A stretch of 51,013 nt of DNA from a virus (Duplodnaviria > Heunggongvirae > Uroviricota > Caudoviricetes), in IMG/VR virus record IMGVR_UViG_2548876959_000011; one strand, 5' to 3'. How positions within the stretch are numbered: the first letter of the stretch is position 1; each line of letters starts with the position of its first letter. A model generated the notes under the pieces. That model made no database searches. It was not told where the DNA came from and worked only from the letters and a program-made list of their open reading frames with translations. Shown piece by piece: positions 27,235-30,400 of this stretch. The position numbers and the translations under genes are program-made.

Positions 27235-28132
27235 GCACTGGAAAAACATTACTATTTATAAACTTTCTCGTGAGGCGGATCTGACCGACTTAGAAGATAA
27301 AAAGAAAATGATCCTTTTCACGCCATGCGGTAGTCAGGATATGGCCAAGTTCGGTTTTGTATCTCCATTTGGTGATAATTCCGAAGTTATCGCTATGCAT
27401 GGAAATGGTTTTATCCTTGTTGAAGCAAAGCGCGAAACAAAAATTCTTCCCCCGCCGGTTATCCAGCGAGCTATTCAAGAAAAAATTGAAAAACTTGAGC
27501 AAGAACAAGCGCGTAAACTGAAGAAAACAGAGAAGGACTCCCTGAAAGACGAAGTTCTGCATTCTCTTCTGCCACGGGCTTTTTCAAAGTTTTCTGTTAT
27601 CCAGGCGATCTACGACGGTTCAACTAAACGTATCTATATCAATGCCAGCGCGCGGCAGGCAGAGGATATGCTCGCGCTTATGCGTAAGTCTCTGGGTTCT
27701 CTTCCTGTTGTTCCCCTGAGTGTTGAAAATCCCATTGAATTAACGCTGACCGACTGGGTACGTGATGGTAGTGCTCCACAGGGATTTCAAATGGGGGATG
27801 CGGCAGAACTTAAGGCAGTGCTTGAGGATGGCGGTATTGCCCGGGTGAAAAAGCAGGATTTGGGAAGCGATGAAATTTCCACACACCTGGAAGCTGGCAA
27901 GCTCGTCACTAAGTTGGCACTCGACTGGCAGAACCGCATTAAATTTACACTGGACCATAACTTCAGCCTTACCAGCGTCAAATTTGCGGATGAATTGCTT
28001 GAGCAGAACTCTGATATTGATAGTGAAGATGTTGCGCAGCGACTGGACGCAGATTTCTTCCTGTTGACCAGTGAAATTTCGTGCCTGGTTGATGCTCTGG
28101 TAAATGCCCTTGGTGGAGAGGCTAAGCAGTGA
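27227..28132 (+). CDS. hrdC: RdgC-family recombination-associated protein (P1 HrdC-like)
   Basis: Start [16 protein letters not shown]... and [23 protein letters not shown] match the RdgC family; ORF-track entry 27113 extends upstream in frame. Confidence 0.85.
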
Positions 28133-30393
28133 AAGAGCTGTGCTATGGATCTGTTTGCAGTGGAATTGAAGCGGCGAGTATTGCCTGGGAACCGTTGGGT
28201 ATGCGTCCGGTGTGGTTTGCTGAAATCGAGTCTTTTCCATCTGCCGTTCTTGCGCACCGCTGGCCCCATGTCGCCAACCTTGGCGACATGACAAAACTTG
28301 CCAAAAAAGTCCTGGCTGGGGAAATCGAATCCCCTGATGTGCTCGTCGGGGGTACGCCTTGTCAGGCATTCAGTATCGCGGGCTTACGTGGTGGGCTTGA
28401 TGATGAACGCGGCGCGCTAACTTTGAAGTATGTGGAGCTTGCAAATGCAATTGACGACAAACGGTCTGAGTCCTTCCTCAAACCGACAGTTATCGTCTGG
28501 GAAAATGTCCCAGGAGTCCTGTCATCGGCAGATAACGCCTTCGGATGTTTCCTTGCCGGATTGGCTGGAGAAGATGCGCCATTTGAACCAGGTGATCGAC
28601 CTGAATCAGGAAAAAGTAACGCGTTCTGGCGGTGGGATGGCAAAACCGGTTGCCATGCTCCAAAGTGGCCGCAGTGTGGTTGTATTTATGGACCGCAGCG
28701 AAAGGTGGCCTGGAGAATCCTTGATGCCCAATACTTCGGAGTGGCACAACGACGCCGACGCGTGTTTGTTGTCGCAAGTGCTCGAACAGACCTCGATCCC
28801 GCAACGGTACTTTTTGAGTTCAAAGGCGTGCGCCGGAATATTGCGCCGAGCCGAAAAAAGAAGGAAATCGCTTCCGCCATTATTGCAAATGGCGCTGCAA
28901 TCAGTGGCGAAAGCCTAAATCCATGCCTACACGCTGACATGCCACCCGGTATGAAATCGACGAAAGCCGTAAACGCTTTCAGGATGGCAGCATTTGGGGA
29001 ATATATTGACGATGAAACCGCATCGACAGTAAAGGCAAGAGATTTTAAAGATGCCACTGACCTTGCCGTTTTTAGCAGCACAGGAGCAGGTTTTTGGTCA
29101 GAAGGGCATGGTACATTGCGGGCACGTGAGCAAGAAAGCCATGAGCATCTTGTTACATTGGCTTTTCCTGAGCGTATGAGCGGTACACAACATGCTGCAA
29201 CTAAGAATACTTCACCATCTCTAATGGCTAAAAATCCAACAGCTGTTTGCTATGAAGTAAGAAACGCAGAAGTAGCTGTCCGCCGTCTTACCCCTGTCGA
29301 ATGTGAAAGGCTGCAAGGTTTTCCTGATGGGCATACGTTGATCCCGACGGAAAAGCGTAAAAAAGTTAATTCAGATGAACTGGCATATCTTCGCAATCAC
29401 TATCCAGATTTAAGCGAAGAAGAGGCCGCGATGCTTGCAGCTGACGGACCGCGTTACAAAGCGATCGGCAATAGTATGGCAATACCAGTAATGCGCTGGA
29501 TTGGCGATCGGATTACTAAGTCCGTATGTCGGCAGAAAGAAGGAAGTGAAACAAAAGAGCGAAAAGTTAAACCAGCGGCAGAATTCGAACGGTCCATATT
29601 CAAATGGGCTGGTGGAAAATTTGGTGTTCTGGAACAAATCTTTCGCTATTTGCCAGAAGGGAAGCGCCTGATTGAACCTTTCGTTGGTGGCGGAGCTGTC
29701 TTCATGAATGCCGGATACCAGGAAAATCTGCTAAATGATGTGAATGCTGACCTGATTAACTTTTACAAGACTCTGCAACGCGAGGCGCATTCACTTATCA
29801 CTCTGGCACATCGTTTCTTCCAGGACTACAACACACAGGAAGGATACCTGGCAGTACGGAATGCGTTTAACAAACAAGTCTATGATGATTTACATCGCGC
29901 AGCGGCGTTTTTGTTCCTGAACCGACATTGTTTTAACGGATTGACGCGTTACAACCAGGCCGGTGAGTTCAATGTCGGTTATGGGAAGTATAAAACTCCG
30001 TATTTCCCATTACAGGAGATGGAAGCCTTCCTCGGTGCGGAAGGGCGGTCTGAGTTTGTATGCGGTGATTTTGCAGCGGTGATTGAAGCTGCCGGAGAAG
30101 GAGATGTCATCTTTTGCGATCCGCCGTATGAACCGCTTCCAAATACAGAGGGATTCACGAACTATTCCGGTCATGACTTTAAGTTTGAAGAGCAAAAACG
30201 CCTGGTGTCTCTGTTGACGGATGCTCATCGTCGAGGTGCAAAGGTTCTCATTACTAACAGTGGCGCGCCAAACATCAGAGAGCTTTATCATGACAGTGGC
30301 TTCAGAGTGGAACCTCTTTTTGCCAGACGTTCTGTGTCTTGTAAGGGGGACACTCGAGGTGTAGCTCATGACGTTTTGGGTATATTGCTCTAA
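28129..30393 (+). CDS. dmt: Dmt bifunctional DNA methyltransferase (C5-cytosine MTase-like N-terminus fused to Dam-like N6-adenine MTase)
   Basis: 754-aa ORF; PCQ motif [12 protein letters not shown] and ENV motif WENVPG in N-half; DPPY motif FCDPPYEP in C-half. Confidence 0.9.
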
Positions 30394-30400
30394 TAAATTT
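30384..30400 (+). promoter_or_regulatory. C1 operator (perfect consensus) overlapping the dmt stop codon; Op72-like
   Basis: ATTGCTCTAATAAATTT 17/17; candidate promoter -35 TTGCTC / -10 TAATAT (30409-30414) overlaps it. Confidence 0.75.

Follow-up and report, generated by a model that had tools for sequence, protein, structure and literature searches.

The dmt locus of a P1-type phage-plasmid

The DNA analyzed here, a stretch of 51,013 nucleotides referred to as the window, belongs to a P1-type phage-plasmid (Punavirus), and the locus under study is almost certainly its dmt gene, with the operator-promoter of the ban operon immediately behind it. None of the tool results spoke against this assignment. 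The gene, both of its domains and the operator Op72ab/Oban are already known, as they are present in the 2004 P1 genome annotation; the fused methyltransferase with an operator on its stop codon repeats what has been published on P1 and adds nothing to P1 biology. Of greater value is the tmRNA-like RNA, conserved and unannotated, in the leader of the ban operon.

Over 3 kb the locus was 99.3% identical to P1 (AF234172), and phage JL22 showed 99.7% identity to it. The P1 annotation was mapped onto the window by a constant offset of -38283, which gave the following setting of the dmt operon:

26862..26878, + strand: C1 operator of the dmt operon, P1 Odmt, formerly Op68 (ATTGCTCTAATAAATAT), matching the consensus at 16/17 positions
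27227..28132, + strand: hrdC, an RdgC-family gene, from the open reading frame ending at 28132 (P1 hrdC, 65510-66415)
28129..30393 including the stop codon, + strand: dmt, a 754-aa fused DNA methyltransferase with a GTG start, from the open reading frame, Pfam and identity to P1 Dmt
31067..31220, + strand: tRNA-Asn(GTT) and tRNA-Thr(TGT), the first annotated genes downstream of Oban

Odmt corresponds to P1 65145-65161, where it is annotated as a monovalent operator, and according to the P1 annotation it controls uhr-hrdC-dmt. hrdC ends at 28132, and its TGA shares bases with the GTG start of dmt. Three tRNAs are present in the window as a whole.

Two methyltransferase domains in a single polypeptide

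An earlier note on this DNA had proposed that one 754-aa frame joins a cytosine-C5 and an adenine-N6 methyltransferase, with PCQ and ENV in its N-terminal half and DPPY in its C-terminal half. This was borne out: the frame runs from 28129 to 30393 on the + strand, all three motifs could be read directly from the translation, and a Pfam search placed one methyltransferase family in each half:

28129..29538, + strand: C5-cytosine methyltransferase domain, aa 1 to ∼470, from PF00145, the M.HhaI alignment and the comparison with P7
29599..30390, + strand: Dam-type (D12 class) N6-adenine methyltransferase domain, aa ∼491-754, from PF02086 and the E. coli Dam alignment

PF00145 scored 127.4 bits in two stretches split by a variable region, and PF02086 scored 192.8 bits over aa 493-725, against a cut-off of 22 in each case. 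When aligned to M.HhaI and E. coli Dam, both halves kept their catalytic motifs. M.HhaI and E. coli Dam are separate, solved enzymes, whereas both types are fused in one chain in Dmt. In the Dmt polypeptide two AdoMet-dependent DNA methyltransferase domains, each independent of the other, would be joined.

The window Dmt shares 746 of its 754 residues with P1 Dmt (AAQ14041.1; gene dmt, AF234172 66412-68676), which is equally long; the overlap of the GTG with the hrdC stop codon, the two-domain architecture and the target-recognition region are also common to both. Among the eight substitutions the one to be noted is at position 74, which is Gly in the window (GGTPCQ) and Trp in the P1 reference (VWGTPCQ). 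P7 Dam (AAQ07538.1, 672 aa) has the same operon position, the same fusion and Oban on its stop codon, and outside the variable region it is more than 95% identical to the window Dmt. Its C5 target-recognition region is unrelated and 82 aa shorter (aa 242-302 versus 242-384), which implies a different cytosine target, if any.

That the 754-aa frame arose by an assembly or frameshift error joining two separate methyltransferase genes is extremely improbable. Some annotated relatives do split the region into two genes, among them vB_EcoM-673R5, which lists a 'DNA adenine methylase' and a 'type II 5-methyl-cytosine DNA methyltransferase' there. No tool result backs such an error, however, and the uninterrupted two-domain fusion was found in all 120 best homologs, the exact 754-aa sequence occurs on 877 public contigs, and both P1 and P7 annotate a single CDS. 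The P1 GenBank entry describes dmt as a "bifunctional DNA methyltransferase" acting on N6 of adenine in GATC and "perhaps" on C5 of cytosine.

The C-terminal half closely resembles E. coli Dam (2g1p; E 3e-58 over 264 residues). It carries K492, FVGGG (aa 518-522) and DPPY (aa 664-667, nt 30118-30129), with CDPPYEPL aligned to CDPPYAPL and the FxGxG motif aligned to EPFVGAGSVF of E. coli Dam. The residues through which EcoDam contacts GATC, which we take from the EcoDam-DNA structure to be K9, N120, L122, R124, P134 and Y138, are largely shared: those matching K9, N120, L122, R124 and Y138 are identical in Dmt, and P134 is replaced by G. The residues matching EcoDam Y119 and R137 are F and K, respectively. 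On the strength of the P1 annotation, which states GATC N6-adenine methylation by P1 Dmt, and of the literature, where GATC methylation by P1 Dmt is described and dmt is essential for packaging in Dam- hosts (PMC12707154), the Dam-type domain would methylate the adenine of GATC. As in P1, this methylation would be needed for cutting of the pac site and for packaging, and would make the phage independent of the host Dam.

The N-terminal half shares PCQ, ENV, QxRxR, motif IX and GNS with M.HhaI. Motif IV reads GGTPCQ, with PCQ at aa 77-79 and the catalytic Cys78 at nt 28360-28362; motif VI (ENV) lies at aa 125-127, motif VIII (QRRRR) at aa 207-211, motif IX at aa 385-400 (16 residues) and motif X (GNS) at aa 447-449. 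In the alignment GGTPCQAFS was paired with GFPCQAFS and WENVPG with MENVKN, and motifs VIII, IX and X were kept, with AQRRRRVF in Dmt and with RKLHPRECARVMGYPD and QFGNSVVINV on the M.HhaI side. The AdoMet-binding motif I is CSGIEA where M.HhaI has FAGLGG; the first Gly is kept and the second is Glu. At about 170 aa the target-recognition region is long, and it bears no relation to its counterpart in M.HhaI. Its variable part spans aa ∼242-384, and only aa 242-384 differ between the window Dmt and P7 Dam. Across homologs at least three classes of target-recognition region (86, 168 and 260-276 aa) were found on a scaffold that is otherwise more than 90% identical.

Inteins typically occupy those sites of a host protein that are conserved and important for its function. 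Related alleles of dmt carry a 341-aa intein directly before Cys78, and VLVGGTPCQ is kept in 107 of 108 intein-less homologs. Judged from its sequence, the N-terminal domain has the C5-methyltransferase motif set, with motif I in a deviating form, and a swappable target-recognition region, and the intein at Cys78 together with the swaps forms the pattern that would be expected of a functional C5 enzyme. We infer that the domain may be active on cytosine, an activity that the GenBank note itself grades as "perhaps".

Alternatively, Dmt could function as a Dam enzyme only, with the N-terminal domain reduced to a relic without catalytic activity or serving in DNA binding or regulation. This would fit the deviation of motif I (CSGIEA versus the canonical FxGxG), the mere 'perhaps' given to C5 methylation in both the P1 and P7 annotations, and the literature searched, in which no report of m5C made by Dmt was found. 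It would also fit the Trp in place of Gly74 beside PCQ in the P1 reference, by which at least one laboratory strain tolerates a change in motif IV. Natural alleles like that of the window carry the canonical GGTPCQ, the Trp being found in the P1 reference record. Against a purely Dam-type function stand the intact motifs IV, VI, VIII, IX and X in the M.HhaI alignment, the near-invariance of VLVGGTPCQ among the intein-less homologs, the intein at the catalytic Cys in relatives, and the target-recognition-region classes, which are typical of active enzymes that change specificity. We regard a Dam-only Dmt as unlikely, although not far-fetched.

A bivalent C1 operator on the dmt stop codon

The end of dmt coincides with the control site of the ban operon, where the following features overlap:

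30384..30400, + strand: C1 operator Oban-a, formerly Op72a (ATTGCTCTAATAAATTT), 17/17, the sole perfect copy in the window
30395..30411, - strand: C1 operator Oban-b, formerly Op72b (ATTACACTAATAAATTT), 15/17, inverted
30385..30413, + strand: promoter P1ban, from the P1 annotation on identical sequence

The 17-bp asymmetric C1 consensus, quoted as ATTGCTCTAATAAATTT in PMC8546580, was found nine times in the window with up to three mismatches, compared to 0.33 copies expected from shuffles. The earlier note had identified the copy at 30384-30400 as the only perfect one and as overlapping the dmt TAA, and it indeed had no mismatches, had no perfect counterpart elsewhere in the window and enclosed the TAA at 30391-30393. 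The site is not a single one as had been assumed: the note had missed the inverted Oban-b, which overlaps Oban-a by 6 bp to form a 28-bp bivalent site. The proposal that the end of one operon is the control site of the next agrees with the P1 annotation, with the amendment that the next unit starts with non-coding RNAs, long before ban. In the P1 annotation the site is Obanab, a 'divalent C1-controlled operator' (formerly Op72ab) that controls ban with promoters P1ban and P2ban; no difference from the window was detected in its 28-bp sequence, in its position with respect to the stop codon of dmt or in its inverted, bivalent layout.

P1ban has a -35 box TTGCTC (30385-30390), a 17-nt spacer and a -10 box TAATAT (30408-30413), which places the whole promoter in the bivalent operator. 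When 30200-31300 was scanned for the sigma-70 consensus, no promoter was called. P1ban went uncalled because only 7 of its 12 hexamer positions match the consensus, which is below the threshold of the scanner, and the null scan was therefore rejected as evidence against it.

The lack of a strong sigma-70 promoter at the operator in the consensus scan could be taken to mean that the operator match is a chance occurrence or a fossil and that the downstream genes are controlled elsewhere, as could the terminator-like hairpin at 30574-30600, 180 nt downstream, which could stop transcripts before they reach the tRNAs and ban. This is highly improbable, since a perfect 17/17 match with an inverted 15/17 partner is the classical bivalent layout, where 0.33 matches per window are expected at up to three mismatches. 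In addition, the window, P1 and P7 share the same 28 bp, although the dmt codons directly before them differ, and the P1 curators annotate Op72ab as controlling ban. PMC4713147 counts both dmt and ban among the lytic genes under C1 control.

With Oban as a functional operator, dmt would close the uhr-hrdC-dmt operon, which C1 represses through the operator at 26862-26878, and the last dmt codons and the TAA would be built into the 28-bp bivalent operator that covers the -35 and -10 boxes of P1ban. In a lysogen C1 would occupy both sites and keep the dmt and ban operons silent, with C1 binding and promoter activity as given for P1 in its annotation and the literature; upon inactivation of C1 both operons would fire. 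Transcripts from Pdmt might also read through into the ban leader, because no terminator-like hairpin is present before 30574. The unit under Oban would then begin with the dicF-like region, the tmRNA-like element and tRNA-Asn/Thr, with ban far downstream.

A tmRNA-like element in the ban leader

Between Oban and the two tRNAs the leader contains an RNA element that is unannotated in P1:

30603..30783, + strand: tmRNA-like RNA element, from a sub-threshold Rfam match and a tag frame

The element matched the permuted two-piece tmRNA family RF04321 with 26.1 bits, below the gathering score of 47. Its tag-like frame (30663-30695) reads GCA AAC GAT GAT CTG ATG ATG GTA GCG GCC TAA, or ANDDLMMVAA*; it has a resume codon, ends in hydrophobic-Ala-Ala-stop and is followed by a hairpin/pseudoknot. 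The surroundings of the resume codon (UAAAUGCAAACGA), the 10-codon tag ending in Ala-Ala-stop and the pseudoknot after the tag are common to the element and to the permuted tmRNA (RF04321) and beta_tmRNA (RF01850) models. Unlike these, the element is without roughly 100-112 model positions of the tRNA-like domain (T arm, acceptor strands and CCA).

Several searches bear on this missing domain. ARAGORN called no tmRNA for 30603-30783, and the tRNA-like positions were deleted in the Rfam alignments of the element. A regular expression for a T arm, acceptor and NCCA had no match in the 500 nt before or the 400 nt after the tag, and a search of the window for a T arm with NCCA returned none besides the three tRNAs. 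Acceptor pairings considered by eye near 30480-30510 and with GGGUUUU at 30604 were rejected, as they reached 5/7 pairs and had no G3:U70.

Homologs of the element were located, often beside tRNA genes, in non-coding DNA of phages from several unrelated groups: P1-like phages, Ackermannviridae, N4-like Schitoviridae and T1-like or other siphoviruses; the hosts of these phages are enterobacteria and Aeromonas. The homologs have retained the frame of 10 codons together with a pseudoknot that shows co-variation. All 125 pattern matches were in frame, in a scan whose pattern itself required GCNGCNTAA and which also retrieved true phage permuted tmRNAs; homologs found by blastn alone keep the 10 codons as well. 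Minimum free energy (MFE) folding of 30603-30783 alone was not significant (z -1.27), and the structural evidence for the element therefore rests on compensatory changes and not on energy. Ordinary translation of the tag frame was rejected on account of an invariant in-frame UAG 8 codons upstream (30639-30641) with no start between. The lone AUG (30661) lies in another frame, the length of which is not conserved (MQTMI* in P1, MQTTMSSK* in phiEa2809 and MQTMMLF* in Bp4). No description of the element was found in the literature searched or in Rfam, and the phages listed in the tmRNA database papers are different ones.

Oban may be a C1 switch for an RNA operon that would yield, ahead of any tRNA, an array of processed structured RNAs, among them a tmRNA-derived tag-template RNA lacking a tRNA-like domain of its own. 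We offer this tentatively, as a possible rather than a probable reading. If the RNA joins or interferes with trans-translation, by a phage tag or by titration of SmpB or another tmRNA-binding factor, the control of lysogeny would be directly coupled to the manipulation of ribosome rescue.

The leader also contains a region that is annotated in P1:

30508..30609, + strand: 'dicF-like region' of the P1 annotation

At the end of this region a terminator-like hairpin (30574-30593) precedes a T run. At Rfam gathering thresholds no DicF or other family was found in it, and a search at E <= 1 gave sub-threshold matches only. The matches to mir-465, mir-142, mir-5985, nuoG and Plastid-ycf2 were rejected as generic hairpin or tRNA-antisense matches, and that to YrlA (25.6 versus 69 bits) because it merely overlaps the two tRNAs. 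Taken together, the tmRNA-like RNA and the long-stem cassettes described below suggest that the 'tRNA region' of P1 and of many other enterobacterial phages has more RNA functions than annotated.

One cassette was delimited downstream of the tmRNA-like element:

30785..30861, + strand: long-stem RNA cassette, MFE -37.9 kcal/mol, z -4.7

The repeated motif CAACAGGTAAGGG stands at its start and the complement of that motif at its end. The leader as a whole contained a set of such cassettes, with CAACAGGUAAGGG long stems.

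The dmt locus

A single open frame of 754 codons with a GTG start occupies positions 28129-30393 (+), its first codon overlapping the TGA of the preceding ORF (ending at 28132; sequence GTGA). The translation contains GGTPCQAFS, with Cys78 at nt 28360-28362, WENVPG (aa 124-129), AQRRRRVF (aa 206-213), a further 16-residue motif (aa 385-400) and AIGNS (aa 445-449), and its C-terminal third contains another 16-residue motif and CDPPYEP, whose DPPY occupies aa 664-667 (nt 30118-30129). The earlier note had described one frame with PCQ and ENV motifs in the N-half and DPPY in the C-half, and both the translation and the domain search it had proposed bore this out: Pfam placed the C5 DNA methylase PF00145 in two stretches (127.4 bits) and the D12-class N6-adenine methylase PF02086 at aa 493-725 (192.8 bits), with a cut-off of 22 bits for both.

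On alignment, both halves retained their catalytic motifs. Motifs IV (PCQ), VI (ENV), VIII (QxRxR), IX and X (GNS) of M.HhaI aligned with the N-terminal half, and the sole deviation was motif I, which reads CSGIEA in Dmt and FAGLGG in M.HhaI. The C-terminal half aligned with E. coli Dam (2g1p) over 264 residues (E 3e-58), with DPPY on DPPY and FVGGG of Dmt on FVGAG. Of the EcoDam residues that we take to be the GATC contacts in the EcoDam-DNA structure, K9, N120, L122, R124 and Y138 are identical in Dmt, whereas Y119, P134 and R137 are replaced by F, G and K.

Megablast against phage records aligned 27900-30900 over the full 3 kb with Escherichia phage JL22 (99.7% identity) and bacteriophage P1 (AF234172; 99.3% identity). 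The Dmt proteins of the window and P1 share 746 of 754 residues, and 877 public contigs carry exactly the window protein, named there "Dam family site-specific DNA-(adenine-N6)-methyltransferase". The P1 record gives the order monovalent operator Odmt (former Op68), promoter Pdmt, uhr, hrdC and dmt. It labels dmt a "bifunctional DNA methyltransferase" acting on N6 of adenine in GATC and "perhaps" on C5 of cytosine. Its Oban operator, entered as divalent, C1-controlled (former Op72ab) and governing ban, begins 10 bp before the dmt end, with promoters P1ban and P2ban, and is followed by a "dicF-like region", tRNA-Asn, tRNA-Thr, plp/upl on the other strand, tciABC, trnI and ban. P1 features were transferred to the window by a constant offset of 38283.

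Features of the dmt locus and the Oban operator
26862-26878: Odmt, C1 operator, 16/17
27227-28132: hrdC, mapped from P1
28129-30393 (+): dmt
30384-30400: Oban-a, C1 operator, no mismatch
30395-30411 (-): Oban-b, C1 operator, 15/17
30385-30390 and 30408-30413: P1ban, -35 TTGCTC and -10 TAATAT, mapped from P1

The earlier note had correctly rediscovered a curated locus: its finding is real, had been rightly interpreted and was already known, namely P1 dmt with the ban operon's bivalent C1 operator. Elsewhere in the window, Rfam matches at gathering level were a sok antitoxin RNA (14730-14904, 114 bits), a C4 antisense RNA (11067-11119) and its a1/b1 target (11188-11273). The latter two are the expected P1 immI components, and sok represents a hok/sok-type module.

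C1 operator and shared control

The C1 operator sequence ATTGCTCTAATAAATTT was found at 30384-30400 with zero mismatches, and the dmt TAA (30391-30393) lies inside it. It was the only perfect copy in the window, as the earlier note had stated; copies with at most three mismatches numbered nine, against 0.33 expected from shuffles. The position of the operator was confirmed, but it is not a single site: the operator is bivalent, and its second half-site, Oban-b, had been missed. The 17-bp asymmetric consensus of the C1 operator has been given (PMC8546580), and dmt and ban have been used as C1-controlled lytic genes (PMC4713147). Window and P1 do not differ over the 100 bp surrounding the operator, and P7 shares the 28-bp site unchanged.

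The last three sense codons of dmt and its TAA also serve the promoter that follows, as its -35 hexamer and as the first operator half-site. Judged from the site geometry and the P1 annotation, C1 bound to the 28-bp site would occlude P1ban. Since no terminator-like hairpin was found between dmt and 30574, transcripts from Pdmt would be expected to continue into the ban leader after loss of C1.

Activity of the two Dmt halves

P1 packaging needs GATC methylation at pac, and dmt frees the phage from host Dam (PMC12707154); within Dmt, it is the Dam half that has experimental support. C5 methylation is qualified with "perhaps" in both the P1 and the P7 annotation, and a literature search returned no report of m5C made by Dmt.

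The pattern among homologs is indirect evidence for an active C5 half. Both domains were present in all of the best 120 homologs, and VLVGGTPCQ was kept in 107 of the 108 of these that have no intein. The 12 longer ones carry a 341-aa intein (Hint_2 and LAGLIDADG_3) exactly between Pro77 and the catalytic Cys78, with the junctions in the PCQ motif (...GGTP/CFTAGH...VVHN/CQAFS, slashes marking the junctions). Such alleles are 960-1095 aa long (related proteins P0001, P0002, P0092 and P0106-P0119) and also occur in phages RCS47 and vB_EcoM-Ro157c2YLVW; the window Dmt has no intein. Strong variation is confined to the C5 target-recognition region (aa 242-384; 28852-29280), and the rest of the protein is >90% identical. 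This region is a swappable module: it falls into classes of 86 aa (P7-type), 168 aa (P1-type and the window) and 260-276 aa, and that of the P7 dam gene is unrelated to that of P1 and the window. Retention of both domains and of VLVGGTPCQ, the intein at Cys78 and the confined variation together lend the C5 half its indirect support.

The P1 reference record has Trp74 (VLVWGTPCQ), adjoining motif IV, whereas the window (28348-28350) and P7 share Gly74 with those 107 homologs. This could mean that the laboratory allele of P1 has an impaired C5 domain, or that the record contains an error. Both this Trp74 and the active-site-Cys inteins of some natural alleles may be of use to P1 workers.

A tmRNA-like element in the ban leader

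Features of the leader downstream of Oban
30508-30609: "dicF-like region" of the P1 annotation
30574-30593: terminator-like hairpin with UUCG tetraloop
30603-30783 (+): tmRNA-like element, unannotated, tag frame 30663-30695 (ANDDLMMVAA, stop)
30785-30861: long stem, MFE -37.9 kcal/mol, z -4.7
31067-31142 and 31145-31220: two tRNAs (tRNA-Asn, tRNA-Thr)
31224-31307: long stem, MFE -41.4 kcal/mol, z -5.5

In a permissive Rfam search of 30380-31080, RF04321 (permuted tmRNA) matched 30589-30695 below threshold (26.1 bits, E 0.0025; gathering score 47). The aligned part contains UAAAU GCA AAC GAU GAU CUG AUG AUG GUA GCG GCC UAA, and the encoded ANDDLMMVAA resembles the enterobacterial ssrA tag ANDENYALAA. 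Blastn with 30596-30790 gave matches at 70-90% identity in non-coding DNA of 292 phage records. These come from several groups that are not related to one another and, besides P1-like phages, include Ackermannviridae (phiEa2809, phiMAM1, PhiSH19, Ag3 and many Klebsiella and Salmonella phages), N4-like Schitoviridae (Bp4, ECBP1, KP8, Pollock) and siphoviruses of ~45 kb (KFS-SE2, DS8, ZX4, Aeromonas pIS4-A). Nearly all matched positions carry no annotated feature and a few only a hypothetical protein; at the loci inspected the element often adjoins tRNA genes. The 10-codon frame was kept in all homologs found by similarity alone.

Tags encoded by related elements
P7: ANDDLMMAAA
phiEa2809: ANDNEFKVAA
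Bp4 and Pollock: ANDDVVLMAA
PhiSH19: ANDNTFLAVA
ZX4 and pIS4-A: ANEEMYLAVA

Scanning IMG/VR for the exact pattern TAAATGCAAACGA N10-25 GCNGCNTAA yielded at least 120 loci. Among the matches listed, related loci included, 125 of 125 were in frame, with at least 54 different tags; the Ala-Ala-stop ending is not independent evidence, because the scan pattern forces it. About 70 of these loci, among the matches listed, were called permuted tmRNA genes by ARAGORN. Loci of this type scored 95-153 bits with Rfam, and for about half of the ARAGORN-called loci a strict pattern detected an encoded T arm and ...CUCCACCA, located 110-300 nt before the tag.

ARAGORN made no call on the P1-, Bp4-, phiEa2809- and siphovirus-type elements, and their Rfam alignments delete ~100-112 model positions that correspond to the tRNA-like domain. 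In these four types, neither the 500 nt before the tag nor the 400 nt after it contained a T arm followed by NCCA; elsewhere in the window only the three tRNAs showed it. In ZX4 and pIS4-A, a TTGACA-17-TAGATT promoter was seen by eye ~10 nt before the conserved GUUUUCG; from it the RNA would start ~75 nt before the resume codon, leaving no room for an upstream tRNA-like domain. In Bp4, ARAGORN detected an unannotated tRNA-Ala(CGC)-like gene (1310-1381) that precedes the tag element by 160 nt and, directly after the element, an odd tRNA-Cys(ACA) of 79 nt (1673-1751).

A hairpin 13-15 nt past the tag stop codon showed at least seven compensatory variants (CGGGG/CCCCG, CAAGG/CCUUG, UGAGG/CCUCA, CGAGG/CCUCG, CUGGG/CCCAG, UCAGG/CCUGA, UCGGG/CCUGA). 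The hairpin loop forms a pseudoknot with a tetranucleotide located 7-9 nt (mostly 8-9) further on, for which the three main compensatory variants were GUCG/CGAC, CCGA/UCGG and CUAG/CUAG, with a register-shifted UCGU/ACGA in Bp4; compensatory changes were also counted with RNAalifold.

From these comparisons we read the tag elements as a family of phage RNAs that probably arose from the coding part of a two-piece tmRNA and in which no tRNA-like domain was found. The tmRNA route into the ribosome is closed to a free-standing tag template. The element may work together with some acceptor RNA, may titrate SmpB or other factors that bind tmRNA, or may have a function unrelated to trans-translation. 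No description of the element was found in Rfam or the searchable literature, and this RNA and the array of RNA cassettes after it are leads that merit a separate look.

Long stems and other leader features

CAACAGGTAAGGG is perfect at 30785, 31224 and 31439 and has two mismatches at 31922; three perfect copies and three with two mismatches were counted, against 0.73 expected. The copies at 30785 and 31224 pair with a downstream complement to form the long stems. Within the stem at 31224-31307 lies a T-arm-like GAGGGTTCGAATCCCT, and this stem overlaps plp, a minus-strand ORF of the P1 annotation. In siphovirus-type contigs (L018, L026, L035, L064, L084, L127 and L128), CAACAGGTAAGGG and its complement flank the tag element. 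The long stems may be RNA cassettes, or sites of processing (by RNase III, for example) at which individual RNAs are freed from the Oban-controlled transcript.

The "dicF-like region" ends in the UUCG-tetraloop hairpin, followed by a T run, and Rfam returned no family above threshold at 30508-30609, DicF included. P1 and P7 are not alike at 30480-30505, and in D6 all of the sequence before the hairpin is missing. Further downstream, directly upstream of the tciA homolog, 31995-32114 (+) matched the Gammaproteobacterial sRNA STnc100 below threshold (39.2 bits, gathering 47, E 1.8e-6), and a similar match was present in a viral contig (L080).
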